A program made the position numbers and the translations under genes. DNA of 64,000 nt from positions 32,001-96,000 of the IMG/VR virus record IMGVR_UViG_3300043774_000178; one strand, 5' to 3'. The stretch comes from a virus. The notes below the pieces were generated by a model that made no database searches, was not told the origin of the DNA, and saw only the letters and a list, made by a program, of their open reading frames with translations. The first letter of the stretch is position 1; the number at the start of each line of letters is the position of its first letter. This document shows positions 1 through 21,700 of this stretch, in pieces.

Positions 1-2
1 CA

Positions 3-3000: not shown

Positions 3001-6000
3001 CTCCTAGTACTCCTATTGAAGAGTTTCCAGCTGATTTATATAATGAACTATATCTCATGTTTGAAGACTATATTGATAAAACAAATATAGAAGTTCAGGA
3101 TGATGAGTTTACTGACAGATTAGCTAACTTCATAAGAACCAACTCTTTAGCTGCTGAAGTAATAGCTGAGTATAATAAAAACAAAAAGTTAGAAATAGCT
3201 ACAGCTCCTACTGGTGAAGTTATTGTACCCACTATAACTACAAGAGATGGTAAAGAAGTTTCTGTAGATGAGTTACCTGAAGAAGAAGTAAGGTCATATC
3301 TGAACTCTTTCTTATCTGAATTAAAAGTATTAGAAACAAAAGATAAACTAGAACCACAAGAACAGAACAGACTCTATCAAATAAAAAGAGTAGCAGATGA
3401 TCTACAGAAGTATGTGGATAGTCTAGATAAAACTCAGTTTACGGAAGCACAGCTTGCCACTATTGAAGTACTAAATCAGATAAAACTTAAGAATGAACAG
3501 TTAGTAAGAACTCCTAATGGGTATATCATAGATGATACACTTCATAAAAGAGTTACTACTGAGATTCAAAAGCTAGTATCTAAAGGTTACCAGTATACAG
3601 ATATTGGTAAAATACGTATTGCATTTAATAGTACACTAGGTAAAACAGGACTTACTGTAGATTCAGTAGATGCATTTATAAATAAGCTAAGAGAGGAATC
3701 TCCAAAAGGATTCAGTGAGTATACATATACAGAATTAGACCAAGAGCTTAAAGCATTAGCTGGTCAACCTACTACTGCTGGTACTCAAGCTGATATAGAA
3801 AGAAAATCTAATGAGTCTGTAAAAGACTTTATAGAAAGATTGTTTTCTAATAATTACTTTTCAGAAGTAGATGGAAAACAAATATTTAGTTTGACACAAG
3901 GAAGATGGGGTGTTGTAGTTAATATAAATGGTGTACAAGTACCTTTTTATCAATCTACTTCTGGTACAGACACTAAAGTTACAGGCCAATGGTACCCATT
4001 CTTTGGAGACTTAGGTAATTGGGTTATAAAAGGGAATAGCGATGATTCTAATATAGGGTATGGGTTTAAAGCTATACAAAATGTTCAAAAGTTTTTAAAT
4101 GATAATATAAAAGAAACAGATGCTATAGCTTTAAGCGGTATTATATCTACAGACGTTAATCAAAATAAAGAAAGTTTAAGAAGCTTAGATGAATCTAAAA
4201 TAAAAGGTAATGAAAAAATATCTTTAAATAAAGAAGCAACTGCAAAAAGATTAGCTGATGTAGCAGGTTACTCACTTGAAGAAGGTAGGAAAACTAAATC
4301 AGATTTAGAATTATTTGAGTTAGCATCTAAAAAAATATTTGCAGAACTAGCTGCATTAGAACCTAAAGCAACTGAAAACCAAGTAGATAGAAAAGCTGCA
4401 GTCATAGAAGCTGGTTTAGGTAGAGAGTTAGAAAATATAGTTAGAGATAGACTAAGAAATGAAGGTGTCACCCAAGCAGAAAGAAATAAATTAACTCTTA
4501 CCCAAGAACAATCTATTTCATTAGCAACAGAAGCTGATTACAAAACTCTTTTAGAAAATAATAAGAGGAAACTCAAAGAAGAAGAAGCTAAGTTTGAAGC
4601 ATCTCAGAAAGAAGATTTTGATCCTACAACTGGAGAATTTGAAACTGGGGAGAATGTTGCTTTCTATCAGAATAAGATAAAATCTATTGAAGGTATAATC
4701 AATATTAAACCTACAGCTAAACCACAGTTTCTTACAAAAGCTGAGCTTAGAGAACTTGTTGAAAATCTAGTCCAGGAGAAAACATATGAAGATGCTAGAA
4801 TAGCAGGTAATTATGTAGATAGAGCCATAAGAGATTTCTTTGCAGGTAGAACTCCTGAGTTCAATGAAAAATATATTACTAAGGAAGCTTATGATAGTTT
4901 ATTTGGTGACTCATCTGCAGTAGATGCATCAGGTAATAGAACTTCAATAGGTTATTTAGAACTAGCAAAACAAAGACTTGAAGAGCAAGGTCTATATCTA
5001 TACTCAGAAGGGTTAGTATTAAATGATGTTGATGCTGTTGTTGCTGGTGAGATTGACCTTATAATGGTAGATAGACAAGGTAGGGTATTTATAGTTGATG
5101 TCAAAACAGGAGACGCAACAAAATGGGGGAATTTCAATGACCCTAAAAATCAATACTCTAAAAAAGAAGACTATGAGTTGCAACAAACTACATACTCTAA
5201 TCTTCTGTTTAACATGACAGGATTAAATTCATTAGTATCTCTTATGCCAATTGAGATAACTAAAGATAAAGAAACAGGAAAAATCCTTACTGCCTCAGCA
5301 CCTAAAGCTAAAGACTTACTTAAACCGGAATCATTTAGAATACCATTAAGTAAAGAAACTAAATCTATTGGTGCTGTTAAAACTATTACAGATACTCAGA
5401 GAGCTGAGATTAAAGGATTTGGTATTACTGATTCTCAAATTGAGCTAATGACTCAAAGAGAAATTGACTTACTTCTAAACCCAGAATTAAGGTCTGAGGT
5501 AATGATTGAAGACTTAAAGAAGAAATATAAAAATGCAGATACAGTTTTAGGAAAAACTATTCAAGAAAGAGTAGATACTATAGTACCAAGAAAAGATAGA
5601 GAAGCATCTATCATTCAAACAGGAAGACCTGTGTCAGAAGAAACAGTTAAGAAACTAAAGAGTCTAGGTTTTACTGATGAGATGATTGGTATAATGAGTG
5701 CAGAAGATATAGAAGAAGCTAAAAAGATCCGTAGAAAAGCAGATGCAAAAACTCTTATAGATAAGTATGCAGAACTTTTACCAAAAGAAGGATCTGAGGG
5801 TGACCAAGCTCCTCCTAAAAATTCTACTAATGCTAATCAGAATGTAGAAGAAAGTGCTGAACTAAGACAGTTTAGAGAAGGCTTAAGAGGACACCTAGCA
5901 AAAATGGATCTTATTGCACTAGATAAGTATGAAGCTGAGACTGTTGCAAACCTTATTAAAAACAAACAGATTACTGCTGAGTTTGCTATCATAGCGTCAG

Positions 6001-6455
6001 AAGAAATTCAAGCTAGAAGAGAAGAACTAAAACAAGGTGCACCATCTGAAGTAACTCCAGTTACTATTGAAAAAGGATCTGAATATGCGGTAGAAGTTAC
6101 TATCTTTGAAACAAGAAATCCTAATAATATTTTTGCAAAGCCTGGTGATGTTGTAAGAGTTGTAAGCTCTACTGAAAATAAAGTAGTAGTAAAGAACAGT
6201 AATAACAAACAAAAGACTTTAAGCTTTGAAGAGTTCAATAAAATGCTTATATTAAAAGAGAACGTAATGCAACCTAGTACTGATACAAGTGAAACTTTAA
6301 CTCCAGAAGAATCCTCTATAGTAGACGAATCTAATTCTGCAGCAATGGATCTATTAGATAGTCCAACTAGAATGGCAGAATTACAAAAAGAAGCTGAAGA
6401 TTCTAAAATAGAAGATCTGGAAAAAGATTTCTTAGACAGTATTGATGAATGTTAG
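3..6455 (+). CDS. Giant virion/ejection protein 1 (5'-truncated) with PD-(D/E)XK nuclease-like domain
   Basis: Frame is open from nt 3, so the gene starts before the window. Motifs GNYVDRAIRDFF, AGEIDLIMVD..VFIVDVKTG and QQTTY at ~4780-5200. First of three tandem giant genes typical of crAss-like phages. Confidence 0.8.
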   Translation, partial: AGIISEAIIEEAGLGLLTAATGGGAAPAWMASLANKGNQFKNLFRTLSKADNVVDASNIYRKSLKAMDNVDDTRRIWSAQKADKALNSGIGRFFNPVENTANAIMKGIKNEDNLTGLARAYTTGYNTVGGLYRDVRSINMALAEARLEGGMTQNDVYKELYNRYYEKTGRAPSDAEQELMIKQSKDAATTSMMWNTGLIYLSNKVVLDNIVGAGKGITGWTRGKIDDILDLKTGKVIKETEEVVLKSGKKFQKPKYKWEENTFKNKLLNIKKNPVSGTLSFAGTYLKGNIMEAGQEVAQEVIGDATKKYYVSTFKNEHLRTQQYATGLAKSAFDDLFSTSRGWETAASGFFMGMFAGPLNKSVELMSVGYDKYFNPEQYNEYKKVRDEYGKRIVNTLSSVDMNEFFNSRIWNYGVQGSMSDLRLADSEKLQRDAQDQAFITQMNTVLENDMMNHFIENLESYKGLTAEEFEEAFPNVPQGEGAKYIAKLDETIDRAKNLEKKYNFYKERFPDPVSAKDLEGLAPESKEYQNAQLLNEAWKVARYNGIFFSETFENVTKRMSGILDSVASQKLLKNASASDITVLFDPKLLANQADILRDEIDMMSKTEGTRPKDLLERKQKLEALDNYDKAVNTYLSFTMTKEAIAEKFINRAKMQGKELSDEELDSLVESEMSKRSESDQVEAAKQLEIAYKDYLKTLAGQTGDYVFDEQIDDSFIKLIDYYKLSDEAKLMNTYANLLMNPAGYLEQVEKNQEWMSELYNNRKEYYQEMVQEAIKAKESNDLLNFLASRNIYVSLDDFQRFLETGILPDEFYNDTNNTVIKRSNPEYIELARAFIKFNELNKQVIKAQSADETLRETLKNLDEKMMDEIEALEKSEVRNELGPIPTKKKGIGISDVMANVEDGQYADLIYMEGKDETQITVYRDGDVLKYNNKEGEEVNPKLKTKFISGVKYEIKLEPDAAEVEAIKEKYRAIKDLKVEEALAEKEKEQFEEDKFVEITPSTPIEEFPADLYNELYLMFEDYIDKTNIEVQDDEFTDRLANFIRTNSLAAEVIAEYNKNKKLEIATAPTGEVIVPTITTRDGKEVSVDELPEEEVRSYLNSFLSELKVLETKDKLEPQEQNRLYQIKRVADDLQKYVDSLDKTQFTEAQLATIEVLNQIKLKNEQLVRTPNGYIIDDTLHKRVTTEIQKLVSKGYQYTDIGKIRIAFNSTLGKTGLTVDSVDAFINKLREESPKGFSEYTYTELDQELKALAGQPTTAGTQADIERKSNESVKDFIERLFSNNYFSEVDGKQIFSLTQGRWGVVVNINGVQVPFYQSTSGTDTKVTGQWYPFFGDLGNWVIKGNSDDSNIGYGFKAIQNVQKFLNDNIKETDAIALSGIISTDVNQNKESLRSLDESKIKGNEKISLNKEATAKRLADVAGYSLEEGRKTKSDLELFELASKKIFAELAALEPKATENQVDRKAAVIEAGLGRELENIVRDRLRNEGVTQAERNKLTLTQEQSISLATEADYKTLLENNKRKLKEEEAKFEASQKEDFDPTTGEFETGENVAFYQNKIKSIEGIINIKPTAKPQFLTKAELRELVENLVQEKTYEDARIAGNYVDRAIRDFFAGRTPEFNEKYITKEAYDSLFGDSSAVDASGNRTSIGYLELAKQRLEEQGLYLYSEGLVLNDVDAVVAGEIDLIMVDRQGRVFIVDVKTGDATKWGNFNDPKNQYSKKEDYELQQTTYSNLLFNMTGLNSLVSLMPIEITKDKETGKILTASAPKAKDLLKPESFRIPLSKETKSIGAVKTITDTQRAEIKGFGITDSQIELMTQREIDLLLNPELRSEVMIEDLKKKYKNADTVLGKTIQERVDTIVPRKDREASIIQTGRPVSEETVKKLKSLGFTDEMIGIMSAEDIEEAKKIRRKADAKTLIDKYAELLPKEGSEGDQAPPKNSTNANQNVEESAELRQFREGLRGHLAKMDLIALDKYEAETVANLIKNKQITAEFAIIASEEIQARREELKQGAPSEVTPVTIEKGSEYAVEVTIFETRNPNNIFAKPGDVVRVVSSTENKVVVKNSNNKQKTLSFEEFNKMLILKENVMQPSTDTSETLTPEESSIVDESNSAAMDLLDSPTRMAELQKEAEDSKIEDLEKDFLDSIDEC

Positions 6456-6459
6456 TAAT

Positions 6460-9400
6460 ATGAAAATTACCTGTGCACTTTCACCCACTCAATTAGAGAA
6501 GTTATATAAACTTGTTTATAAAAATATAATCACTGCAGTAGAAAAAGGGGATACTACATTTGACCCTAATGTCTATATGCAGGATCTGTTTACTAAGATG
6601 GCTGATAATTCCTCAGAGGATAATGCCGCCAAGTTTATTCAACAGGTACCCATACTTTTAGTATCAATACAAGCTACTCCTAAAGTATTTAGAAGTGGTA
6701 TAAAGTTTCCTGAAGGCACAGACTTAAGAGAATTAGATTCTAGATATACTAATTCTGAAACAGGTATAGGTGAAATACTTAAAGACTTTGGATCATCAAA
6801 CATTAATGATCTTAGATCAAAGGTTCAAATGAATGCAAGGACTCAGTTTGATCCTACAGAAAGAGATCTTGAAGAACAAGAGATTCCAAGTGCACCAAGA
6901 CTAACATCATTCAACCCTAATACAGGAACCCTAATTGAGTTTCAACCTGTAAAGCCTGGTAAGAAAGCAGAAGATGTTCTGTTCCAAGAATCTATAAATG
7001 AAAATAGAACTACTATTTATACTACTATAAATAGATTAAGAGATGCTGTTGATCCTACTACACAACTAGTAAAAGATTTAGTATATCAAAATAGAACACT
7101 TAGATTAAAAGCAGTTCCTCTTGAAACTATTGACAGAGATTTACTTGATCAGACTACTTTAAAAGCAATTGAAAGATCACAAGTACTAAGAGCTGATAAA
7201 AAAACTCAAGCTGGTGTAGTTCAAACAGATAGTATGGTAGCATTAGTTGTTATTGATGCTGAAACAGGAGATTTTGTAAAGTTTGATGAGACCGGTGACA
7301 TAACAGATAATGTTGAAGGTAAGATAGTATATCAGTTCTTAAGACCTATAGCAAAGGATTCTAATGGAAAATATGTTGTTACTGATTTCTTTGCAAAAGA
7401 AAGAAGAATAGCTAAGCCTGACCTAGTTGCAACTAAGACATACTTTCCTGAAATGGGTATATCTTATGAGGAGTATCTTAAGCAAGTAGATAAAGAACAG
7501 CAAGAAGACTTTAAAAAAATAGAAGAACTTAGAAAAAAAGTTTTATCTGGAGAAGATATAGAACTTTCTATAATAAGTGTTACTGATGGTATTGCTCCTT
7601 CAGAAACTGGTATAAGACTTACTATACAAAAAATTAACGATAACTATTATGGTGATCTTAATTGGGAATCTATATTTAAAACAACAAGGATATTAAACAA
7701 GAAAGAAAAGGGATTAGGAGAAGGTGTTGCTGTTGTAGAAATAAAAGGTAAAGAATACGCAATAGATAGAAAAGACATACCTAATGATAAGGCAGAAGAA
7801 ATATCTTATGTATTAACAAATCCTAATATTCCTTTTGAAACAAGACTATCATTTTATCATCAGTTCTTTGGAGATAAGATATCACCTTCAGCTGTAAGTC
7901 ATAAGATAACTTATGATGTAGATACTAAAGAATTTAAGATCTTCATATATAATGAAACTTATGCTCAAAATAAAAACAGAAAAGAACCTAGAGGAATTGA
8001 TATATCGGATGCAGCATTAAAGAAAGCATCACCTGAGTTTTTAGAAAAATTAAGATATAATATAGAACAAAGATTAAAAAAAGGTAAGTCATCTGTTTCA
8101 GGAACAATGTATGCTGCTAAGATGAGTTATGTATCTGATTTATTTAAAGGTAATAAAGCATTCTTTACTTATGATATAAACACTCAGGAGTTTACACCAA
8201 CTAACTATACTAAGTTTATTACATCTCTTAACCCAGAAATTACTACAGCTCTGGAAGGAACTGAGAACTTTAATGCATCTATAGTATTTAACATGCCCTC
8301 ATCTATTGAGAGTAAGATTGAACAGACTAATAAAAATTTAAAAGCAGAAAAAGAAGATCCTGAATTAAGTGTAAAAGAAAACAAAGATGATTTAGTATCT
8401 TATCTTAAGACTGTTGGTGATGCTGAAACAGCATTAGTAGATACTCTTAATATTACAGAAAGTAAAAGTGGTAGCACTCTAACTTTTACATCTCCTTCTA
8501 ATGGATCTGAAATAACTGTAGGACTAGATCCAAAAGCTATTGATGAAAATTTAATACCTGAAAAAGAAGGTATAATTACATTAGGATTAGCTACAGTTGA
8601 AACAGATGACATATATGTAGAAGATGCAATAGAGGTTTTTCACAATGGTCAATTAATTGGATACGTTAGAGAAACTAGTACTCCTCAAGAAAGAGTAGAA
8701 AGAGAAAAATTTTACAAAGACAAAAAGAAAGAAATTCTAGCTCAGAGATTAGCAGAGCAAAATCAAATTCTTAACCCTACAAATGTTACTCAACCATCTG
8801 ATACAAAACAGAAGCCAGGTAAGAAAACAAAAATAGATCCTAGTAAATTCTCAGGTTTAAATAGAAGTAACTTACTAGATAATGGTGTCACTCAAGAGCA
8901 GATTACTGCTGCAGAGAAATGGTGGTCTTCACATCCACTAAATAAAGTTATTGGATTAGAGCACCTTACTAACATTGTTAATTCAAATGCTTTTGCAAGA
9001 TTTACTTCTTCTGCGCAGAAACTAACTGACCCTTCTTTACTAGGTAAAATAACTTTTTATAAAGGTGGTAGTTTAGTAGATATCTATCATGAAGCATGGC
9101 ATGCATTCTCTCAATTATATTTAACTAGAGATGAGAAGATAAAACTCTATGAGGAAGTAAGAAGAGCTACTCCAAAACTTGCTGATGCAAGCCAACGAGA
9201 AATAGAAGAAGAACTTGCAGAAGACTTTAGAACTTATGCTAAAAATCAAAAGGTAAAGAAAGACTCTCCTGTAAGAAACTCTTTGTTTAGAAAAATACTA
9301 AACTTTATAAGATCCTTTTTTGGAAAGAATCCTGCTAGTCAAGAAGTATCTAATAATCTATCTGATAATACAGTAGTAAAAGAACTGTATGATAAACTAT

Positions 9401-12400
9401 TTTTTGCTAATCAAAATCCTAGTTTATTAAATGACTATACTCCTCTTATTGACAATGTCATGTTTGACTCGCTAAATAGAGGTCCTCAGAGAGTAGATAA
9501 TAGAAAAGAACAAGCTTTGAGTAAAGCAGATGCAGATAAAGCAGTAGAAAGCTTAGATTCTATATTATCTGACTATATAGATGAGATCCATGACGTAAGA
9601 AAAAGTCAAGGAGATGCAAACTTAAAGTCTGGTAGTATTGCATTACTTTCAAGTCAAGTTGGTGAAGATGGTATAACTAATAAAGAAAGACTTTATGATT
9701 ATGCTAAATCAGAGTTTCAAGACAAACTCGAATATTGGCAAGATCAGCTAGGTGAAATATCTGGAGCTAACTTTAACAAGTTAAATTCTGTAGAAGAAAT
9801 AGAAAGAAATGCTATAGGTATAATTAGAAGTGAAAAAGGAAAACACAAATACTTTTTCTTAACTTCTCAAGTAGAAAATTTTGATAACCTAATACCTGAG
9901 TTAAAACGAGGTCAGAGAGTAAAAGGACAAGCATACTATAATATAAATGTAGTATCAGACTTCTATTCACATAAAAATATAAAAGTAGGTGACAGACCAA
10001 TAACTATTGCACTTGTATCAGATGTAAGAGATGCTGAGATACAATATGATAACTACATAAAAGGTGGAAATCAGGACGTTACTATTTTTGAGCAAAAAAA
10101 TCAACCGAACTTAGTACCTCTAACTCCTGAGCAACAAGCTATACAAAACAAAGTAAGATTGCTTGAGAAAGTTTTAGAGAACTGGGGTGATGCAAATACT
10201 GGTTTTGTAAAATATCATATGGAGAATAGTGACTTTGATATTATCAAAGAAACATTTGTTGAAGTAGAATATGATGAGGCTGGTGTAGAAGTAGATGAAA
10301 CAAGTCCTGAAGATGGTAAAGGTTCTGATGATACCTTCAATGATAAGACAGGTAAAGTATCATTAGAGAAACTAGCAAACAAAGAAACTGTATACCTACT
10401 AAAAAGTCTTTTTAAGATTGATAGAAAGACTGGTGAAACAATAGAAGATTCACTTGGATTTAAACAACGTGCAGACTATAGAGAAGTATGGAATGCAGTT
10501 GTAAGAGCAATGGGTGGAGAAAAGAATAGAGTTAAAGCTTATGAAAAACTAAAAAAAGCAGTATCTCATACTCCTGAATTAAAACAACTTATAGAGAAGA
10601 AGTTTCCTATGCCAGAGGGTATTACAAACCCATATGAGTTTAACATAAGCTCTTCATTCTGGCAAACATTCTCAAGACCAAGAGTACCTTATTTGCAGCT
10701 TACTGCATATATGAATGTAGAAAAAGTTTATGATCCTATATCAGGTTCAGAAACTTCAAAAGTTAGATCAGTAAACACTGAAGTTACTACAGCTTCTGTT
10801 GAGGTAAGTTCTACATTAAGAAAGTTTGAGACTAAATTTAAGACTGATCTTAATAATCCATATGTTACAAGAACAGCAAGTAATGAAACTCTATTAAAAG
10901 TACAGGAGGTAGCTAAAGCTTTTGCAAATAAGAAAACAGCAGATCTTAATGTTGCTGACTCATTTAATTTTGCAAGAGCTATAGGTTTCTATGTTGATGA
11001 TTTACTATCTATAAAGAAAGAACTTAAAGATAATCCGGGTCAATATGGGTTGCAATATATCTATGATGTTGTAAAAGGGTTTGCTGCAATAGAAGCTAAA
11101 GGTGCAGAAGCTACAGTAGAACAATCTAAGAAGTTATTAGAATTCAAAAGAAATCCTGTACAAGTATTATCTAGTGAGATTCCTAAAGGTATACTAGGAG
11201 ATAAGTCTGTTAACATGAGTACTAATGTTGATAGATTAGCTAAGCTACAAATTAACCTTGGTGTAGATTCTTCTAACTATTCAGTGTTTAGTGCTGATAG
11301 AAATAAGGTATTTGAGTTTATCAATGACCACTCTATAAGTAGAATGGTTGATGCTATAAATGATGTAAATAAGTTAACTGAGCTTTGGACAGAGTCAGAG
11401 TATAAGTACATGAGCTACTTGGATTGGAACAAAAATACATTTACTCAAAAGTCACAAATACTTAAAAGTCTATTTGATTTTACTGATCCAGAATTTGAGA
11501 AAAGAGAAGGTAAGTCACTCAAGTTATTTAATGACTCTGGTACTCAAGCTGTTATAAATGAAAATGGTAGGACTGAGTTTTTTACAGGAACTAATACTAC
11601 TTCACAAGATATCAATGGTAAGTTCATTCAAGAACTACACATGATGTTAAAAGGTGGTGTCCAAGAGTTTATTAGACACGCATCAAAGAAAACAGCACAA
11701 GGTGTAAAGGTAGATGGTGGAATAATAGGTGGTATTGAAAAAGGTATAGACCCTAATCTATATGTAGATATATCTATGTTCAAACCTGATGGTGCAGGTG
11801 TAAGCTATGCATTCAATCAAATACTATTACCATATATTACTGTAGAGTTTGATAGGATACAAAAGTTTAAAGCTAACAAAGAGAAGTATCTTAACTTCCT
11901 CGGATATAATAATAGAGTTGGTGGTACTAAAGAAAATCCTATTTATGCAGGAGAAGTATTCACAGCTTTTGATAATGTTATTACTGATAGTGTAAAACAA
12001 AAGTTGTATAATCTACCACTAGGTACAGATCTTAATGCGTACTTAAGAAGTAATCCTTCACTGAGATTAGAACTACAAAGAGATGTTGAACAGTACTTTA
12101 AAGAACAGACTCTTGATAATATCAGCATGCTTGAAGAGAACAAGTTTATAGACAGCTCTCTCTTTGATAAGTTAGGTATGCCTGCCCCTGTTAATGAAAC
12201 TCGTGAACAAAAACTAACAAGAGAAAAAGAGGCTGAAGCTTTGCTTGTAAAAGCATATACATACAACTCCTGGATACATAACTTTGAGACAATACATCTT
12301 TTCTATGGTGATATGGCTCAGTACAATCACATAAAAGAAGAGTTGCATAAGAGAAATACAGGATCTACTTCAGGTGGTATTAAGTTCTTATCAGATAAGC

Positions 12401-15400
12401 CTGCTCAAGACTTTATCAATAATAGTTTTAATCTTAAAACTTACGGTGCAAAGCTTGCTAAAGATTTAAAAGATGATAACTATAACTCTTTCTTCTTTGA
12501 CGGTACTTTAAACTCAGCAGTAATTCAGGATATAGAAAGAGAATCCGTTTACTTAACTGAGATAGAAGAAGCATTAAGAGAAGACTATACTGAGAGTCTT
12601 AAAAAGTTTAATTATACTGACAAGCAAGTTAAAGAAATAGTAGATAAGAGAATTAAGGAAGAGATAAAAGCATACAAGAAAATGACTGAAGGTGATGGTG
12701 CTGGATACATTACTCTTGATGCATATAGAACTCTTAAGAAATTATCTAATGAGTGGACTGATGATGTTCAGGAAAAGATTTATCAAGACATCATTAATGG
12801 AAGACCGGTTAAAGCAAAAGATATAAAAGAATTCTTCCCTGTATACAAACTTCAGTATTTTGGAAATATAGATACAGGAAAAGATAATCTTCCTGTTACA
12901 GCAATGCATAAGTTTGCACTTACTCCTTTGATACCAAGTGTATTTAAAGGTACAGAGTTAGAGAAGATGCATAAAGAAATGTTGAGAAACAATGTTCAGT
13001 ATGTAACATTCCAATCTGGTTCTAAAGTATCTGGTGTAACAAGCAATGGTAAAGTTGATGATATCTATGCAGACAGTGAGAGAAAGACTCTAAAAGATAA
13101 AATGGAGTTCACTCCTAACAAAATCTATTTAGAATATCTTAAAGATGTAACTAAAGTACCTAATAAGTTTAAAGAAACAATTACATATCCTACTCAGCTT
13201 AGAGGACTTCTTTTAGATGGTATCTATAATGAAGGAAACATAATTGATAAAGTATTTACAGAACCTGCAAATCAGTATAAGAATGCAGTTGATGGTTATT
13301 CAGAGTTGCTTAAGATTGAGTTGCTCAATGAAATAGGATATGAGTACGATGAGAAAACAGGTAAGTACACAGGGAATCTTCAGGACTTCCTTGAAATGGT
13401 TCAGAAAGAGTTAGAGAAAAGAGATCTTCCTGAACAACTTGTTAAGTTCGTAGGAGTAAATTTGGACAAGAGTCTAAGAACAGACTTATCTCTACACTTA
13501 GAAGCAGATACAATAGAAAAGATTCTTTTATCTGTAGTTCAGAAAAGACTTATTAAGCAGAAAGTAAAAGGAGAAGCTTTTGTACAGATACCTAGCTCTA
13601 TGACTAATGGGGGTTGGGGAAGTAAATTTAAGCTAGGTACAGTAGAGGACAGAAAGAAATTTATGGGTTCCAATACTCTTCCTTTCTATAAAAGAAATAA
13701 AGGAGGAAAGACATCTGCTATGAAAGTAGCTGTGGCTTTGCAAGGTGACTTTGAAAATTTACTTAAGCTTAAATATAATGATGAGGTAATAGGTGATATC
13801 AATACTCTAAATGAGGCAATTAAGGATGATGCTTGGTTAGAAAAACATAGAGAAGCTATAACACTTGCTGGAGCACGTATTCCTATTCAGAACCTTAACT
13901 CAATGGAATTTGCAGAGGTCTATCACTTCTTAGATCCTACTGCAGGTAACATGATTATAGTACCTACTGAGATTGTAGCTAAAGCAGGATCTGACTTTGA
14001 CGTTGATAAAATCTTCTTTAGTTTACCACACATTGATAAGAAAGGTAGATTTATTAAGACTAAGCTGACTAACCAAGAGTTAGAAGCTAAAATAAAAGCT
14101 GCAAAGAAACCTAAAGAAAAAGCTGCAGTTAAAGCTTTGATTAAAGAACAGAAACAAGCTTTAGAAAATAACCTCATAAGTACAACAAGAGGTATCCTAG
14201 AAGTAGATAAAAACTATTCAAACCTTGTAAGACCTAATGCTACATATCTAATGCAGGATATGGTAGAGTCCTTAGAAGATTATGTAGTTGACTACAGTAG
14301 GTATAATACTATGCACGATGAGGGTATAAGAATGTTTACTGATAATGACGGTAAACAGAAAAGAGTTATTAGTCCAACAAGAACACTTGAAGCTAGATAT
14401 AATTTACAGAAGCATCAGGTAAACATGGTAGGTAAAGATACTCTTGGTATTGTAGCTCTTGAAAACAAACAGCATCCTATTTGGAAATCTATAATGGCTA
14501 AGATGCCTCTTTTTTACAAAGAAGCAGTTTGGAGTAATGGATTAGGTAAGTATGTTGAAATACCTGAGATAGACAAGTTTATGTATCTCAGAATGAATCA
14601 TAATAAGATAGGTGATAATATCTCTATGTCATCCATGTATTCAAAAGATGGAGACAGAATATCAGATCTTATATCTCATATGATGAATGGTCTTTTAGAT
14701 GTAGAAAAAGATCCTTGGGTATTCTTTATTCAAGCTAACTTAGAACAGATACCTGTAATTAACTATTTACTTCAAGCAGGTGTACCTAAAAAAGAAGCAA
14801 TATACTTTGCTGCTCAACCTGCAGTAAGAGAGTATGCTAAAGTACAGAGAAACCTTAAGAGTACATTCTCTGCATTCAATAGTGCAACACCTATCAATGA
14901 AGCAATGATAGCAGCACAAGCTGCAAAAATTGTATTTGAAAATAATTTTGGTAATAGCTCTTTAGGTGAACAAGCTAGAGATGAGCGTCTTGGTCAAGTA
15001 TTTGACAAGTTTAAAAACAAAGATGTTTATATAACTTATGGTGTAAAAGGTACAAGTGAAGTTTATGAGGGTCCTCTTAAAGGTTTTGAAGACTTTTATT
15101 TTACATATAATGTAGCTAATAAAGTTCCAATTTTTATTAAAGGTATCAATGAAGCAAAAACAGGAAGAATATTATTTCAGCCTTCAGTAAATCCTGTAGC
15201 ATCAAGTAACATTTACTATAGTTCAAAAATTGTAAATGGTGCAAAAAACTTTACAGAAGAAGAGTTATATGATAATATTAAGAATAACAGATTTGATCTA
15301 GGATCATTCTTACATTTCTTAGAAATTGAGCAACAAATAAAAGGTATCCAAGCTGTTAAAAGACAAGCTAATCCAGATACTAAACTTGTAAAAACTGCAT

Positions 15401-18400
15401 ATCAAATTAACAAGCAAGAACTTGCATATGAGAATGTAGTTGATTCTTCTAAAGTAGATAATGATTTACCAGTAGCTATTAGGGAAAGATCTATCTTAAG
15501 CTCATTCTATGCTAGTAAACTAACAAAAGATTTAGTAACTCCTGTATTTCCTTTAAGATTAAATAATGAGATAAATGACTTTATCACAAATAGATTAAAT
15601 TTTGGAAGTCAGAGAATCAAGAAAAGATTTGGTGCAGGAGTAGATGGTCAAGAGAAGTTTACATCTAGCTTTAACAATGGTGTAGTTAATTATATATTCC
15701 AGAACTATCTTTCTAACTATATAGATAATAGTGGTAAAGCTACAGTTCTCCCAACTGTTTATAGGGAGATGACAGTAATCAGTGCTCCATTTAAAGAAGG
15801 AGACAATGAGTACTTTATACATGTAGACAAAGCAAATAAAACTATTAACGTAGACCTTGAGGAGTTAAAAGATATCTATGATAATGGTTTATACTTAAGA
15901 AGCAATAGAGAAGAAGGTAGCTACAATGATATAGGTTTATATAGCTTTATTGATGCTAACAATCCTTTTGATACATTTGAGTCCTTTGTACGATACACTA
16001 TTGAAGAAGCACACCTTAGAAGCATATATACTCCTGAGAGTCTTAAGGGTAATAAAACTTATGAAAGATATGAGAAAATAGTTAAGAGAGGTCTTAAAGA
16101 TGCAAAGCAATCAGAAATAGATGCTAAAGCATTTAATGCATATATAGCACAGAGAGCATTACTAAATGTTTACAATCCTAATGCTATAATGAAAACAGAT
16201 CTCTTCTCATACTCAGATCAAATCATGAGTGTAATAGAAGACTATCAAGGAACATCTCTCATGGATACGTATCCTATACTAAATCAATTTGAGATAGCAC
16301 AGTTCCCAGCAAAAAGAGGAGTTAAACTTATTACACTAAAAGATAAGAGTTTAGCAGAAGGTGATGTAGCATTTGGATACTATCAACAACTAAGACAACT
16401 TGGTGATATAAATATCAGAAAAGTAAATGACCCAGTAGAGAACAAAAGAATCAGTGATCTATTTAAGGTCTTTACTAATATGATGATATATCAACATGGT
16501 ATAGGATATAGTCCATATGGATTCCCTAAAGTACTAGACCCGGACCCATTTGTAGAAGTAATGAGAAATGCCAGTGCTAGATTTATGCAGGGTAATCTAA
16601 ACAATGATACTTTATCTAGTATATATGAAACAGTAGTATCTGATAGTCCATTACAAAAAGACTTTAGAAACTATGTAAAAACTGTTGAAGAGTTTAATAA
16701 AGGTGTTAAAGAAATAGATAACAGTTCTGAAAACCCAGAAGAGATAGAAGGAGAAAGTGAAGGTACATCTACTCAACCAACAGCCCAACCTGCTACAGGA
16801 GGAACAATTAGTTCCACTATATATGAACTTAATCCTAATATTACAGAAAAAGAAATTAAGAAGATATATAACAACTATGTTGCTCTAATGAATCTTAGGA
16901 GAGAAGGTAAACAGATAAGTTATAAAACTTTTAAAAGTCTTCTGGACTCTTACCAAGTATATAAATATAAAGACACTTATATATTTGGACAGTATGATAA
17001 TAAGAATGCGGTGTTTATTACAAGGATGAATAGTTCTCCAACTAGTAAAGAATTGCTAGCAGAAGCTATACCAAATCTTGTAAGTAAGGGATTAGACTTT
17101 ATGTCTTTTGTACCTAAAGATTATGCAGAAAAATTAGTAAGAAGTGGATATACATCTTCTACTGACTCATATTCTTATAATTTCAAGGGAGAAAAGATGC
17201 AAAAGTTTGCTGTAGCATCCAATCCTTTAATCTTCCAAAAAGTATTTAACAAGAAGTTTGATGAAGTAACTGCAGAAGAAATAGAAGATTATGCTGACTC
17301 AGTTGAGTTAAAGTATAAACCGGTTGAAATAAATGCTGATCTTATACAACAAGCAGGTAATGATCTTTCTAAAGTCTTAGAAACTTATCTTGGACAATTT
17401 GGAATACGTGTTGATGACATAAATGTTATAAAGGATAAACTAAAAGTTGATGAATTAGGTTTTGCAGATATACTATCTAAAGTTGCATATGTAAAAGATA
17501 AAAAAGATTTACCACCAATAGCTGGAGAATTCATTGCTTACATGATGCAGTATAATCCTTTAGTTCAGAGTATTGTAAATGATCTGATTCAGACTAATGC
17601 TATACTTATACCTAAAGACAGTTATACATTTAACGAGCAAGGGAATAAAGTTTATAACTATAAGTCTCTTGATAAAACAGAGTTCTTTAAATACATAGGT
17701 AAGTTAATCTCAGAAGATCTACAAAACAAACTTGAGGGTAACTATAATAAGTCTCTAGTACAGAAAATCAAAGACTTGATAAAAACATTCTTTGACTACA
17801 TTAATAGAACTCATATTGATAGGATAAATACTAATGTAGGTATCATATCAAATAACATCCTTCAACAGAACAAGAAGTTGATCACTTCATCTTTATATAA
17901 ACCTGGAGCATTTGGGCAACCAACTCAACAGGTAGATATTGAGTTTGCATTAAAACAAGATCAATTTGGAGCATCTATTATATACTCTTTAGCAAATGAA
18001 GGATTCATACTTACAGGAAGTACTGCACTATCAGAACAAGGTACAATCCTAAGACCTGATGAGAATCCTCTCCATGATATTGATTGGGTAAGTCCATTTA
18101 ATAGAAAGGAAACTGAAGAGAAGTTCTTAAAAGTATATCCAGATGCTGTTAAAGTAAGAGACATATATGGGGAAGGTTATATAACTGATAGCTATCTTAT
18201 TGCACCTGAAGGACACTCAATAGCTAATTATAAAGCTGATAACTTTAACGGTAAAATAATTATGAATTCCTATGATGTACTAGATAGTAGTGGTGCTGTA
18301 GTAGGTACATACCGACTACAGAAACAAGAGAATAATAATCAAATGGAAGAAGTTGTTACAGGTGTAGAAGGTAAAGTTATTGACTTCTTTAGTTATGAAA

Positions 18401-18672
18401 ACTATAATGACTTTAACAGAGGAAAAGCTTTTGAGTATACTTCAAAACAAGGTACAGTAATTAAGCTTGCAAACTGGAAAGACATCTTTGGTGCCAAGTT
18501 AGCATGGGCTAGATATAAGGACATATGGGATTACAATAGATTTATTCCAAATGAAAATATAGAAAAGATAACTGGTAACCAGCCTGGTGCAAATTTAAGT
18601 TCTTATGAAAATAAAAATGCTCCTGATGGACTTCCTCCAATTGATAGAACATCCCCTTCATGTGGAGGGTAA
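6460..18672 (+). CDS. Virion-packaged two-barrel RNA polymerase polyprotein with zincin (HEAWH) domain and C-terminal nucleotidyltransferase
   Basis: Catalytic GSDFDVDK (13987-14010) preceded by RIPIQ and EGDGAGYI, as in crAss-like virion RNAPs (phi14:2 gp66 type). HEAWH at 9088-9102 with downstream EEELAEDF. ATG at 6460 preferred over the TTG at 6442, which overlaps the previous gene. Confidence 0.9.
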   Translation: MKITCALSPTQLEKLYKLVYKNIITAVEKGDTTFDPNVYMQDLFTKMADNSSEDNAAKFIQQVPILLVSIQATPKVFRSGIKFPEGTDLRELDSRYTNSETGIGEILKDFGSSNINDLRSKVQMNARTQFDPTERDLEEQEIPSAPRLTSFNPNTGTLIEFQPVKPGKKAEDVLFQESINENRTTIYTTINRLRDAVDPTTQLVKDLVYQNRTLRLKAVPLETIDRDLLDQTTLKAIERSQVLRADKKTQAGVVQTDSMVALVVIDAETGDFVKFDETGDITDNVEGKIVYQFLRPIAKDSNGKYVVTDFFAKERRIAKPDLVATKTYFPEMGISYEEYLKQVDKEQQEDFKKIEELRKKVLSGEDIELSIISVTDGIAPSETGIRLTIQKINDNYYGDLNWESIFKTTRILNKKEKGLGEGVAVVEIKGKEYAIDRKDIPNDKAEEISYVLTNPNIPFETRLSFYHQFFGDKISPSAVSHKITYDVDTKEFKIFIYNETYAQNKNRKEPRGIDISDAALKKASPEFLEKLRYNIEQRLKKGKSSVSGTMYAAKMSYVSDLFKGNKAFFTYDINTQEFTPTNYTKFITSLNPEITTALEGTENFNASIVFNMPSSIESKIEQTNKNLKAEKEDPELSVKENKDDLVSYLKTVGDAETALVDTLNITESKSGSTLTFTSPSNGSEITVGLDPKAIDENLIPEKEGIITLGLATVETDDIYVEDAIEVFHNGQLIGYVRETSTPQERVEREKFYKDKKKEILAQRLAEQNQILNPTNVTQPSDTKQKPGKKTKIDPSKFSGLNRSNLLDNGVTQEQITAAEKWWSSHPLNKVIGLEHLTNIVNSNAFARFTSSAQKLTDPSLLGKITFYKGGSLVDIYHEAWHAFSQLYLTRDEKIKLYEEVRRATPKLADASQREIEEELAEDFRTYAKNQKVKKDSPVRNSLFRKILNFIRSFFGKNPASQEVSNNLSDNTVVKELYDKLFFANQNPSLLNDYTPLIDNVMFDSLNRGPQRVDNRKEQALSKADADKAVESLDSILSDYIDEIHDVRKSQGDANLKSGSIALLSSQVGEDGITNKERLYDYAKSEFQDKLEYWQDQLGEISGANFNKLNSVEEIERNAIGIIRSEKGKHKYFFLTSQVENFDNLIPELKRGQRVKGQAYYNINVVSDFYSHKNIKVGDRPITIALVSDVRDAEIQYDNYIKGGNQDVTIFEQKNQPNLVPLTPEQQAIQNKVRLLEKVLENWGDANTGFVKYHMENSDFDIIKETFVEVEYDEAGVEVDETSPEDGKGSDDTFNDKTGKVSLEKLANKETVYLLKSLFKIDRKTGETIEDSLGFKQRADYREVWNAVVRAMGGEKNRVKAYEKLKKAVSHTPELKQLIEKKFPMPEGITNPYEFNISSSFWQTFSRPRVPYLQLTAYMNVEKVYDPISGSETSKVRSVNTEVTTASVEVSSTLRKFETKFKTDLNNPYVTRTASNETLLKVQEVAKAFANKKTADLNVADSFNFARAIGFYVDDLLSIKKELKDNPGQYGLQYIYDVVKGFAAIEAKGAEATVEQSKKLLEFKRNPVQVLSSEIPKGILGDKSVNMSTNVDRLAKLQINLGVDSSNYSVFSADRNKVFEFINDHSISRMVDAINDVNKLTELWTESEYKYMSYLDWNKNTFTQKSQILKSLFDFTDPEFEKREGKSLKLFNDSGTQAVINENGRTEFFTGTNTTSQDINGKFIQELHMMLKGGVQEFIRHASKKTAQGVKVDGGIIGGIEKGIDPNLYVDISMFKPDGAGVSYAFNQILLPYITVEFDRIQKFKANKEKYLNFLGYNNRVGGTKENPIYAGEVFTAFDNVITDSVKQKLYNLPLGTDLNAYLRSNPSLRLELQRDVEQYFKEQTLDNISMLEENKFIDSSLFDKLGMPAPVNETREQKLTREKEAEALLVKAYTYNSWIHNFETIHLFYGDMAQYNHIKEELHKRNTGSTSGGIKFLSDKPAQDFINNSFNLKTYGAKLAKDLKDDNYNSFFFDGTLNSAVIQDIERESVYLTEIEEALREDYTESLKKFNYTDKQVKEIVDKRIKEEIKAYKKMTEGDGAGYITLDAYRTLKKLSNEWTDDVQEKIYQDIINGRPVKAKDIKEFFPVYKLQYFGNIDTGKDNLPVTAMHKFALTPLIPSVFKGTELEKMHKEMLRNNVQYVTFQSGSKVSGVTSNGKVDDIYADSERKTLKDKMEFTPNKIYLEYLKDVTKVPNKFKETITYPTQLRGLLLDGIYNEGNIIDKVFTEPANQYKNAVDGYSELLKIELLNEIGYEYDEKTGKYTGNLQDFLEMVQKELEKRDLPEQLVKFVGVNLDKSLRTDLSLHLEADTIEKILLSVVQKRLIKQKVKGEAFVQIPSSMTNGGWGSKFKLGTVEDRKKFMGSNTLPFYKRNKGGKTSAMKVAVALQGDFENLLKLKYNDEVIGDINTLNEAIKDDAWLEKHREAITLAGARIPIQNLNSMEFAEVYHFLDPTAGNMIIVPTEIVAKAGSDFDVDKIFFSLPHIDKKGRFIKTKLTNQELEAKIKAAKKPKEKAAVKALIKEQKQALENNLISTTRGILEVDKNYSNLVRPNATYLMQDMVESLEDYVVDYSRYNTMHDEGIRMFTDNDGKQKRVISPTRTLEARYNLQKHQVNMVGKDTLGIVALENKQHPIWKSIMAKMPLFYKEAVWSNGLGKYVEIPEIDKFMYLRMNHNKIGDNISMSSMYSKDGDRISDLISHMMNGLLDVEKDPWVFFIQANLEQIPVINYLLQAGVPKKEAIYFAAQPAVREYAKVQRNLKSTFSAFNSATPINEAMIAAQAAKIVFENNFGNSSLGEQARDERLGQVFDKFKNKDVYITYGVKGTSEVYEGPLKGFEDFYFTYNVANKVPIFIKGINEAKTGRILFQPSVNPVASSNIYYSSKIVNGAKNFTEEELYDNIKNNRFDLGSFLHFLEIEQQIKGIQAVKRQANPDTKLVKTAYQINKQELAYENVVDSSKVDNDLPVAIRERSILSSFYASKLTKDLVTPVFPLRLNNEINDFITNRLNFGSQRIKKRFGAGVDGQEKFTSSFNNGVVNYIFQNYLSNYIDNSGKATVLPTVYREMTVISAPFKEGDNEYFIHVDKANKTINVDLEELKDIYDNGLYLRSNREEGSYNDIGLYSFIDANNPFDTFESFVRYTIEEAHLRSIYTPESLKGNKTYERYEKIVKRGLKDAKQSEIDAKAFNAYIAQRALLNVYNPNAIMKTDLFSYSDQIMSVIEDYQGTSLMDTYPILNQFEIAQFPAKRGVKLITLKDKSLAEGDVAFGYYQQLRQLGDINIRKVNDPVENKRISDLFKVFTNMMIYQHGIGYSPYGFPKVLDPDPFVEVMRNASARFMQGNLNNDTLSSIYETVVSDSPLQKDFRNYVKTVEEFNKGVKEIDNSSENPEEIEGESEGTSTQPTAQPATGGTISSTIYELNPNITEKEIKKIYNNYVALMNLRREGKQISYKTFKSLLDSYQVYKYKDTYIFGQYDNKNAVFITRMNSSPTSKELLAEAIPNLVSKGLDFMSFVPKDYAEKLVRSGYTSSTDSYSYNFKGEKMQKFAVASNPLIFQKVFNKKFDEVTAEEIEDYADSVELKYKPVEINADLIQQAGNDLSKVLETYLGQFGIRVDDINVIKDKLKVDELGFADILSKVAYVKDKKDLPPIAGEFIAYMMQYNPLVQSIVNDLIQTNAILIPKDSYTFNEQGNKVYNYKSLDKTEFFKYIGKLISEDLQNKLEGNYNKSLVQKIKDLIKTFFDYINRTHIDRINTNVGIISNNILQQNKKLITSSLYKPGAFGQPTQQVDIEFALKQDQFGASIIYSLANEGFILTGSTALSEQGTILRPDENPLHDIDWVSPFNRKETEEKFLKVYPDAVKVRDIYGEGYITDSYLIAPEGHSIANYKADNFNGKIIMNSYDVLDSSGAVVGTYRLQKQENNNQMEEVVTGVEGKVIDFFSYENYNDFNRGKAFEYTSKQGTVIKLANWKDIFGAKLAWARYKDIWDYNRFIPNENIEKITGNQPGANLSSYENKNAPDGLPPIDRTSPSCGG

Positions 18673-18702
18673 TTAGTATCTTAGTATAATAATCTTTAAG
18701 AA

Positions 18703-21700
18703 ATGCCTTGCAGAATACAAATTGAAGAAAAAATAAGGACTCAAGCAGAAGATGCTATCAGACCTTATAGAGGAAGAGACTACATAAAGCTAAGAGTAGA
18801 AGCTAGTAACGTAAATAAAAGATATGGTTACCCTGTTGTACAAGTATCACAATGGGAAGCTGACATCTATGATGTAAATGTAAATGTTCCTGAGCCTTTG
18901 ATTGAAGAGTACTATCAGAATGAACTCAGAAAAGAAGAGGAAGAAGCAAGACAAAGTCAGATAGAAGATGCTGAAAGAGCAGGTGAAATATATAATGATA
19001 GATACCTGTTTGATAATAAACAACTTGTCTTAAAGACAATGGCAGAGCAAGGGGTTGATGACTATGATGAAGTCATGAGATCTCTTAAAGAAGATAGAAT
19101 AATGCAAGTAGCCAAACTCCTGGGAGAAAGATTCCAGAAAGCATTTGGTATACCACATGAAGTTATCACAGCAGCACAAGCAAGAGAGTTATTAAGAGGT
19201 ACTAATATACCTTACACAGGTGAGGCAGCATTCTATTATGGGAATGTTATATATGTAGTAGAAGGTAATATGAAACCTAGTGCAATACTTCATGAGTATG
19301 CACACCCTTTTATTCAAGCATTAGAAAAAGATAATCCACAGTTATTTGAAAGATTGTTTTACAATCTAGCTACCTATGATGTAGGTCAACAAATCATTCA
19401 AGAGATAGAGTCTAAGTACCCTGAGCTTGAAGGAGATACGCAAAGATTTAAACAAGAAGTTTTAGTTACTGCACTTGAGAGAGCAGCACTAGATAACTTA
19501 GCTGAAATAGAAAAGAATGATCCTGACTTTGACAACTTCATTTCTCAGTTATTATATGCTATAAAGAAGATAATAAGAAAGCTTGTAGATAAAGTAAACT
19601 TAAAAGAGCTTAGTCCTAATACTACAATGGAAGAGCTTGCTGATATGTTTCTTGATCCACAGTTTGTAATTGAAGTTCCTAAGTTCTCAGAAGATTCCTT
19701 TGTATACTTTAAAAAGAATCTTAGTGATTTTACTACACAGCTTCAAGACATAAAGTATGATTCTCTAATTGATACAATTAATAGAGTACATCAGGAAGCT
19801 AAGTATGAGATTGCAGCAATTAAAGCAGCACCTTTTAGATTAACAAAAGAACTTTCTGGTAAGGATGGTATAAAATTATTAAGAGGTGTAGAAGGAAGTT
19901 TAAAAAACTTTCAGACATATGAAAAAGATCCATCAAAAGCTGATCCTCAAGTAGTAGCTGATGCTATGTTAGACCATACGGAAGAGTTTAATAAAAGAGC
20001 ATTAGCATTGATTAACAGCATGAATGAGATGGAAGTCTTTGCTGAGAATATTGAGAAGGTTCTTGATGAGATGAAAGAAAACAAGGAGCACTTTACTTCT
20101 GTAGGTATCTCCAAGATAATGTACTTCAAAGATTTTATAGCAAGACAAAGTGAGTTCATAGATGAGATAAAGGAAATATCCGGGCTCAAGAAAACAAATG
20201 AGTTCTATAAGAAACTTAACTCTATTGACAATACACTACAGGGTGCATCAAAACAGATTAAGAGATTACAAAGAGAGTTTGTAACAGACTTCTTTGGTAA
20301 ATCTACTAATCTTATGACTACTAATCTGGAAGAAGGTATAAAGGAAAGGATTACTAAGGTATTTAAAGCAGATGGTCTTAGTGATGAGATGATTAATGAG
20401 TTTTACAAAACAGTAATTAATACTCCAAACGGTAAAACTATTACAATTAAAGATGCAAACTATCCTCTCAATCCTAAGAGAGCTCAGAGACTAATCAATG
20501 AAGTAAATGAATACTTTGCTAAAAGACTTGGTAAAGAACAGATAGATGATTTTATAGAAGGGAGAAGAGATGACTTAGGTTTCTTTAGTGCATGGATTAC
20601 TCCTTATGCAAATATTGATGATCCTCTAGTAGGTTCATTTGCAAACTTTATAAAAAGAGAACTAAAGAAAGCAGAGAATAAAAGTTTAAGACAAGCAAAT
20701 GATATTGCTCAAAGAACTTTTCAGTTACTTAAGGATGTAGGATATAATCCTAATAGTACAGGGCAGCTAGCTAAGATGGTTTTATTTACAGATAAGGTAG
20801 GTACCTTAAATGATAAAGGAGAGTATGAAGAGTTTGAGGTTAGAAGTTTCATGGACAAGTTTAAAAACTGGAGATATGAAAGAGGAAAACTTCAGCATGA
20901 GTTTGATGAGGCTAGAGAATCTAAAGATAAAGATGCAATTAAAAAAGCTTATGATGCTCTTTTAGAGTTTGATGAGAAGTACATGCATAGAAGGTATAAG
21001 AAAGAGTACTATGATTTACAAAAGATTTGGAAAGAAGGAGCAAGAGTAATTGACCCCTTTACAAAGGAAGAGATAGTTGTTTCTAAAGAAGATGCATTTC
21101 AGGCATGGTTAGAAAGACAAACAGCACTAGATAAGTTATCAGTTGTAAAGAATGTACACTTTACTGAGTTAGAAGATGTAGAAGGTTTCTCAATGGCTGA
21201 TGCAGCTAATGCTGAATACCAAAGATTATTTGATGTATATAATCCAGACAATACACCTAAGACTGGTGAAGAGCTTAGAAAAACTTTATTAAGAAGATTC
21301 TACAGATCTGAATCAAGAAAGTTCTATGAGTATCCTATAAGTATGGATAGAGTACAGCAAGATCTAGATAACTTTATAATTAAACTTGCTGGTGAAGGCA
21401 TCACATTAGAAAACAATGAAGAAAAGTTTAATGAAAAACTTGAGAAGTTTATAAGCGTAAACTTCAGAACAGCATATACAGATGAGTACTATTCTGAAAA
21501 AAGAAGAATACTATCTGATATTAGAGCAATCAACAATAGAGCAAAAGCTAATCAAGATATTCTAGATAAAAGAGAAGACTTAAGTAAACAGTTATTTGAG
21601 TTAGTAAATCTTGTACTTGATAAGAATGGTCAACCTAATGGTATTGAGTTTACTCCTGAGCAGATAAAAAGAGTTAAGACACTAGAAGAAGAAATAGCTA

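Follow-up and report, generated by a model that had tools for sequence, protein, structure and literature searches.

It is still an open question how crassviruses package several megadaltons of protein and pass it in the right order through a narrow tail (PMC10172136, PMC13434306). The giant proteins gp47, gp50 and gp49 of crAss001 are virion components, thought to leave the particle as partly unfolded cargo (PMC10172136). A paper of 2026 likens the virion RNA polymerase (vRNAP) of phage N4 to beads on a string, a chain that is likely unfolded inside the virion and passes a tail of 30-45 Å, and asks what relation the three crassvirus proteins bear to the N-terminal, core and C-terminal parts of the N4 enzyme (PMC13434306). 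Here we analyse three adjacent giant proteins, which we call P1, P2 (the vRNAP protein) and P3, encoded in a stretch of 64,000 nucleotides (the window), bases 32001-96000 of the 114,090-bp IMG/VR virus record IMGVR_UViG_3300043774_000178, whose completeness is estimated at 96%. Almost devoid of cysteine, these proteins carry single cysteines at the ends where one faces the next, and we argue that these cysteines probably pair as disulfides which join the three proteins head to tail.

A bond of this kind has been seen in one other system. In the pre-ejectosome of cyanophage A4, solved by cryo-electron microscopy, the C-terminal helix of gp27 is docked in gp26 and Cys1715 of gp27 forms a disulfide with Cys5 of gp26 (PMC12002296, PNAS 2025). 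We find in the genome of Anabaena phage A-4L that these are the sole cysteines of gp27 (1717 residues) and gp26 (1114 residues). As at the crAss-like junctions, the genes are adjacent, the large ejection proteins are otherwise free of cysteine and the terminal cysteines face each other. The two systems differ in that A4 has a single link between two proteins, in an ordered, T7-like core that holds no RNA polymerase, and its disulfide was reported as a structural detail, whereas the window phage would have two links (up to three in relatives) that include the vRNAP, in a thread of about 8400 residues, under a rule that holds across the order and follows gene fission and fusion. A4 belongs to an unrelated family (Saffermanviridae) and the comparison is by cysteine signature alone; we take the likeness as one of design, not of descent.

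Other head-stored, tail-threaded giants share the scarcity of cysteine with P1-P3, as there is none in the 4294 residues of N4 gp50, gp51 and gp52, nor in the 2065 residues of T7 gp15 and gp16. Unlike the crAss-like phages and A4, N4 and T7 have no facing terminal cysteine pairs. N4 gp50 (3500 residues) unites the N-terminal, catalytic and C-terminal parts in a single polypeptide and therefore needs no coupler; its polymerase is of the T7-like type, whereas that of the crAss-like phages is a two-barrel enzyme. Freedom from cysteine seems to be a general trait of tail-threaded proteins, of which we found no mention in the literature examined here, and the facing pairs at the termini set crAss-like phages and A4 apart. 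Disulfides do occur in the crassvirus virion between tail hub and ring proteins (PMC10172136). Neither the paper on the phi14:2 polymerase (bioRxiv 10.1101/2020.03.07.982082) nor the structural atlas of crAss001 (PMC10172136) mentions the cysteines described here or a link between the proteins, and a full-text literature search gave no paper on these cysteines or on a covalent link between crAss cargo proteins. The A4 disulfide is already published; new here are the moving break points of the crAss-like chains, a free module with a cysteine at each end, a four-protein chain, the module tree with its repeated rearrangements and a weak prediction of docking.

Cysteine content of the three proteins

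The three open reading frames (ORFs) lie tightly spaced on the + strand, with gaps of 4 nt and 30 nt (Table 1). Together they encode 8405 residues; the preliminary description, made from the window alone, had counted about 8150, which is corrected here as P1 begins upstream of the window. Their translation contains exactly four cysteines, each at an end that adjoins a neighbour in the series and none elsewhere, just as had been read before. The outward ends, which are the N-terminus of P1 and the C-terminus of P3, are bare, and the earlier statement that P3 has no C-terminal cysteine holds as well.

This distribution departs strongly from the rest of the genome. The remaining ORFs of at most 1500 residues contain 1.28% cysteine (289 of 22624 residues), from which about 107 cysteines would be expected in P1-P3, and the binomial probability of finding four or fewer is 7e-41. 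Four cysteines would each fall into a separate five-residue stretch at a facing terminus with a probability of about 3e-12. Cysteine is found within the first five residues in 2 of the 97 other ORFs in the genome and within the last five in 4 of 97. The three ORFs upstream of P1 (324, 1671 and 971 residues, the last directly upstream) are all cysteine-free. The avoidance is not general, since ORFs farther upstream in the same + strand block are rich in cysteine, one of them with 40 in 546 residues. One exception amid the cysteine-free, cargo-like ORFs is a protein of 748 residues (genome 26090-28336, upstream of the window) with ten cysteines at residues 375-476, a cluster that may be a metal-binding domain. 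Histidine is also very scarce in P1-P3 (0.19-0.91%).

The sequence around the junction cysteines is itself conserved in part. In the alignment of P2 relatives M1, I3, C5, A6 and L7 are invariant at 28% overall identity, which also backs the ATG at 6460 as the start of P2, and the MPCRI start of P3 is kept in four relatives (L002, L010, L046 and L048) at 34% overall identity. This conservation suggests a docking motif that extends beyond the thiol. We rejected the possibility that P1 and P2 are joined by read-through or frameshifting, as the TAG stop of P1 has an in-frame TAA behind it and P2 is read in another frame.

Junctions, break points and fusions in relatives

A tblastn search with the junction regions against GenBank phages gave no match, and our relatives are about 60 loci from IMG/VR and from JGI/ENA/TARA metagenome contigs. 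For these we listed the + strand ORFs with their cysteine positions and clustered the junctions between neighbouring cysteine-poor ORFs into 29 non-redundant ones, all from aquatic relatives. A junction was counted as having cysteine on both sides when one lay 0-5 residues from the upstream C-end and another at residue 3-5 of the downstream protein (once at residue 9, with a doubtful start codon). Both sides carry cysteine at 26 junctions and neither side at three, and there is no junction with cysteine on one side only (Fisher's exact test, p = 2.7e-4, uncorrected for relatedness). The flanking sequences are diverse, for example ..KCRK/MSKKC, ..KECY/MAC, ..FKCK/MSAC, ..KEKC/MAC and ..KTCT/MPC. 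In every chain the last protein is without a C-terminal cysteine and the first without an N-terminal one, and the 53 distinct chain proteins of these junctions (115,533 residues) have 11 internal cysteines. Lysine is about twofold enriched within two residues of the junction cysteines (0.197 versus 0.097); on general chemical grounds a nearby lysine should favour the reactive thiolate. In three loci (L022, L026 and L033) an unrelated small gene stands between the partners and both cysteines persist. The inserted ORFs have 147-175 residues with internal cysteines (L022:8051-8491, L026:2959-3462, L033:764-1288) and may be mobile insertions of the homing-endonuclease-like kind.

When the relatives are mapped onto P1, P2 and P3, the chain is found to be cut at different places in different lineages, and the cysteine pair moves with the break. 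This can be followed with a conserved module of about 590 residues (Table 1), which relatives share at 45-90% identity. In the window and in L002, L004, L008, L010 and L035 the module is the C-end of P2 and the pair comes after it. In another type (L003, L006, L007 and others) the module opens the next protein, in which P3-like sequence is fused to it, and the pair comes before it, near residue 3400 of the window P2, where the window protein is continuous and cysteine-free; these lineages in turn have no cysteine at the site of the window P2/P3 break. The module is internal to a protein of 4660-4685 residues in L011/L064 and L041, with the pair at later breaks, and free-standing in L053/L054/L065 (782 residues) and L021 (1043 residues), where the module protein has a cysteine at both ends. 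The longest series is the four-protein chain of L023, with three pairs and one member of 465 residues that has no cysteine besides residue 5 and its final residue. These architectures are interleaved on a maximum-likelihood tree of the module, with nine changes on the best tree, at least three of them forced by well-supported branches, and close sisters can differ in architecture (L023 and L024, L026 and L058). The P1/P2 break is likewise not homologous across the order: an HExxH motif lies about 185 residues before the C-end of crAss001 gp47 and 877 residues past the break in the window. A cysteine pair is present at a break whatever domains flank it, and where there is no break there is no pair.

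At the joint that immediately precedes the module, P2 of the window has a Gly-Gly (window 16798-16803, P2 3447-3448, in ..PTAQPATGGTISST..); this site is the place of the gene break and the cysteine pair in other lineages, and P2 itself ends in ..SCGG. We considered whether processing at Gly-Gly could remove the N-terminal cysteines of P2 and P3 and rejected it, as the dipeptide is not enriched across P1-P3 and occurs first at residue 869 of P2 and residue 1088 of P3.

The same rule is found in cultured and reference members of Crassvirales, and mapping the cysteines in cargo orthologues, which the preliminary description had proposed as a check, shows the terminal cysteines kept there as well as in the aquatic relatives. 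The proteins g067-g066-g065 of phi14:2 and gp47-gp50-gp49 of crAss001 are homologous to P1-P2-P3 and have the same pattern. In phi14:2, g067 ends with its sole cysteine, the 2180 residues of g066 include just two, Cys3 and Cys2179, and g065 has a single one, Cys3. In crAss001 the sole cysteine of gp47 is third from the end (..RCNS), gp50 (MSKRC; 2412 residues) has Cys5, Cys2404 and one internal cysteine, and gp49 (MAKKC) has only Cys5. DAC15 has the same layout as crAss001, and in both phages the P1 homologue (gp47 in crAss001) lies on the strand opposite to its downstream partners (gp50-gp49 in crAss001). This arrangement excludes a junction signal at the nucleotide level, and so do the small genes inserted between partners in three loci. 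In crAss002, gp32 ends in ..FVCS and the MSC of gp33 stands at residues 33-35 of a probably over-long annotation (L016:15088-15190). The true start of gp33 is probably 32 codons downstream of the annotated one, giving an MSC that matches the start of p-crAssphage gp44; the gap of 170 nt that precedes it contains a hairpin-like element.

Gene fusions show which ends belong together. In p-crAssphage, gp45 ends in ..SFSCM and gp44 starts with MSC; gp44 is a fusion of the polymerase with the subunit that follows, and it lacks a C-terminal cysteine. The converse is seen in three Suoliviridae (cr50_1, cr1_1, cr52_1) and in Flavobacterium phage Fpv1, in which P1 and P2 are fused (for example cr50_1 gp059 and Fpv1 gp33). 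The fused protein has no N-terminal cysteine and keeps the C-terminal one, which is faced by proteins starting MQC, MSIIC, MAKGIC and MAC in cr50_1, cr1_1, cr52_1 and Fpv1. Fusions thus remove exactly the two facing cysteines and leave the other terminal cysteines in place, from which the pairing is that of the P1 C-end with the P2 N-end and of the P2 C-end with the P3 N-end. On these fusion patterns (p-crAssphage, Fpv1 and the Suoliviridae) we also rejected a cyclic P2, in which its own two terminal cysteines would be bonded to each other. The cr52_1 genes (L068, gp32-gp35) contain many in-frame TAG codons (37 in gp34), from which TAG codes for a residue in this genome, and the terminal cysteine rule still holds.

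Judging from protein similarity, the source of the window is a divergent crAss-like phage in which P1-P2-P3 correspond to gp47-gp50-gp49 of crAss001. By blastp P1 matches phi14:2 g067 (E 2e-9) and crAss001 gp47 (E 1e-4), P3 matches crAss001 gp49 (E 8e-9), and residues 1929-2801 of P2 match 859-1666 of phi14:2 g066 (E 2e-19). A profile of the P2 core from 11 relatives matches the phi14:2 gp66 polymerase in the PDB (6VR4 chain A, E 8.2e-53); this needed the profile, since a single-sequence phmmer search of P2 against the PDB did not match 6VR4. The single DxDxD of P2 (AGSDFDVDK) is invariant in the relatives as DFDxD (D613, F614, D615 and D617 of the core alignment) and recurs in gp66, gp50 and gp44; DFDxD is the defining motif of the large virion-packaged crAss-like polymerase (bioRxiv 10.1101/2020.03.07.982082). 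The HEAWH of P2 stands in a region (residues 866-960) that resembles by blastp the surroundings of HEAFH in crAss001 gp47 and cr50_1 gp059, and zincin-like motifs similar to this one and to the HEYAH of P3 have been noted in phi14:2 gp65 (bioRxiv 10.1101/2020.03.07.982082). In L003 the P3-type motif reads HEFCH, and its cysteine is the only internal one of that protein. A PHROGs search found no family for P1, P2 or P3, and Pfam gave a marginal PD-(D/E)XK match in P1 (window ~4776-5126) and a partial LysM match in P3 (residues 1640-1665).

Table 1. Positions in the window of the chain genes, their cysteine codons and other features
Feature	Window position	Strand	Details
P1, first chain protein	1..6455 (start at genome 31307, 693 nt 5' of the window)	+	2382 residues; sole Cys is the last residue
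P1 C-terminal Cys codon (TGT; ..SIDEC*)	6450..6452	+	translation; Cys kept in L012 (..NDCPVK)
P2, virion RNA polymerase protein	6460..18672	+	4070 residues; only Cys are residues 5 and 4068
P2 Cys5 codon (MKITC)	6472..6474	+	translation and alignment of relatives
HEAWH (HExxH, zincin-like)	9088..9102	+	P2 877-881
DFDVD catalytic motif, two-barrel RNA polymerase	13993..14007	+	P2 2512-2516
Conserved module, about 590 residues	16807..18579	+	P2 3450-4040; C-terminal, N-terminal, internal or free-standing in relatives
P2 Cys4068 codon, third-last residue (..SPSCGG*)	18661..18663	+	kept in L002 (..SPTCGG)
P3, last chain protein	18703..24564	+	1953 residues; sole Cys is residue 3
P3 Cys3 codon (MPC)	18709..18711	+	start of MPCRI
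HEYAH (HExxH, zincin-like)	19291-19305	+	P3 197-201

A probable disulfide chain and its alternatives

The preliminary description had proposed that the C-terminal and N-terminal cysteines link the proteins in gene order, through disulfides or a shared metal. The comparison strongly supports the linkage in gene order, by the joint presence or absence of cysteine at the 29 junctions, the shifting breaks, the loss of pairs on fusion, the order-wide rule and the A4 disulfide. As to the nature of the link, we favour intermolecular disulfides in the virion. Like their homologues in crAss001 and phi14:2, for which this has been shown, P1, P2 and P3 would be carried in the head and ejected into the host, and would form one linear, unbranched chain P1-S-S-P2-S-S-P3, with the topology of the fused polyproteins of relatives and of the single-chain N4 vRNAP. 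Other cysteines may have been purged because a stray or internal disulfide would create loops or branches that cannot be threaded through the narrow portal and tail channel, and with links at the extreme ends any side stub would be no longer than a few residues. Assembly takes place in the reducing cytoplasm, where the termini probably first come together by non-covalent docking. The disulfide would be made afterwards and fix the order, with each protein drawing its successor through portal and tail, and the reducing cytoplasm of the host could then separate the subunits. Stoichiometric packaging, ordered threading and release on reduction had been suggested as the purposes of the link. Since packaging takes place in the reducing host cytoplasm, stoichiometry would probably come from the non-covalent docking, with the bond locking it afterwards. 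What has been observed is the cysteine pattern, its conservation, its co-variation with the breaks and the A4 precedent; for crAss-like phages we infer the bond itself, its timing and its purpose.

Modelling of the terminal peptides had also been proposed, and we predicted the complex of P2 residues 1-450 with the last 120 residues of P1. The median interaction prediction score from aligned errors (ipSAE) was 0.54, whereas none of three controls exceeded 0.00, with contact agreement between runs of at least 64% and a predicted local distance difference test (pLDDT) score of the partner of at least 57. Of 80 solved complexes 58 attain this ipSAE mark, as do 2 of 110 mismatched pairs, and the range up to 0.60 holds 7 of the 80 solved complexes and both mismatches. 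The predicted docking of the P1 and P2 termini is a small addition to the case, and weak support for it.

Several points weigh against the disulfide chain. For crAss-like phages the case for the bond is one of sequence comparison; the reconstruction of crAss001 left its cargo unresolved (PMC10172136), and virion presence is known from mass spectrometry for the homologues in phi14:2 and crAss001, the window phage being an uncultured record. The main difficulty is when and how the thiols would become oxidised in a reducing cell or in the anoxic gut. Not every terminal cysteine fits the pair rule: p-crAssphage gp47 (..QSCR; L015 1588-4161) and crAss002 gp30 (..FRCGGKKKIA; L016 4393-6066), smaller cargo proteins upstream of the chain, have a lone cysteine 1-7 residues from the C-end, and the gene that follows has no N-terminal one. 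The counts for the 29 junctions are not phylogenetically independent. Gut lineages, furthermore, tolerate some internal cysteines, with 35 in 42,968 residues of chain proteins (0.081%; L013-L018 and L067-L069) versus 12 in 126,928 residues (0.0095%) in the aquatic set (L002-L066), a difference of about ninefold (Fisher p = 2e-12, uncorrected for phylogeny). This higher density would fit weaker selection against stray disulfides where oxidation is rare.

Sequence, finally, cannot separate a disulfide from a shared metal ion, which is the main alternative. The terminal cysteines might join the proteins through zinc, iron or copper, perhaps with two junctions supplying four thiolates as in the Rad50 zinc hook, and open on loss of the metal. 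The joint presence and absence of the cysteines suits any cysteine-mediated clasp, and a metal would need no oxidant, which suits assembly in the cytoplasm and life in the anoxic gut. Packaging is also thought to include more than one copy of each cargo protein, indeed several (PMC10172136). For a four-ligand site two junctions would have to meet, however, because each terminus offers a single thiol, histidine is scarce and there is no other cysteine. There is also no conserved second ligand, as histidine flanks the cysteine in 0 of the 26 paired junctions, and the one solved case with the same signature, A4, is a disulfide (PMC12002296). We therefore regard a metal clasp as unlikely.

Somewhat less probable still is that the terminal cysteines are not bonded to each other and each attaches elsewhere, be it to a common docking site on the portal or inner capsid, to a lipid or other modification that serves after injection or in a homodimer of one and the same terminus, with the same machinery handling both ends. 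The partnerless C-terminal cysteines of p-crAssphage gp47 and crAss002 gp30 would be at home in this reading, and so would T7 gp14, whose single cysteine, at residue 2, has no partner in gp15 or gp16. Independent use would not predict that the outermost chain ends never carry cysteine, and it sits badly with the absence of discordant junctions (0 of 29) and with fusions that take away exactly the two facing cysteines; in A4 the facing cysteines bond directly to each other (PMC12002296). That the pattern has no function in the proteins, arising by chance, as a by-product of composition or from a nucleotide signal such as translational coupling, is very improbable: the tight gene spacing and the general scarcity of cysteine in ejected proteins such as those of N4 and T7 would agree with it, but the chance probabilities for position and depletion given above are minute, the cysteines, whose sequence surroundings are unrelated, lie within 0-5 codons of the stop on one side and at codon 3-9 on the other, crAss001 and DAC15 have the P1 homologue on the other strand, the pair survives inserted genes, and identities of 45-72% exclude an artefact of near-identical contigs.

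Returning to the disulfide chain, it can be extended, more tentatively, to a redox-gated thread. A megadalton chain might be injected in fixed order, and reduction in the host might cut the clips, releasing and perhaps activating the RNA polymerase. A pair would come or go wherever genes are split or fused, disulfide and peptide bond being interchangeable, and a near-total ban on other cysteines, stricter in oxic waters than in the gut, would be the price of an unbranched thread. We consider this fuller picture possible, though clearly less likely than the chain itself.

Cargo delivery in crassviruses and beyond

Crassviruses are among the most abundant human gut viruses, and a coupler made of terminal cysteines would explain why their three polymerase-associated proteins behave like a polyprotein across the order. 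A disulfide-linked P1-P2-P3 would be the topological equivalent of the N-terminal, core and C-terminal parts of the N4 vRNAP. Lone facing terminal cysteines in otherwise cysteine-free giant proteins would also provide a sequence rule by which chains of injected cargo could be spotted in uncultured phages. One physical constraint, that of threadability, would then link crassviruses with A4-like cyanophages and with the cysteine-free ejection proteins of N4 and T7.

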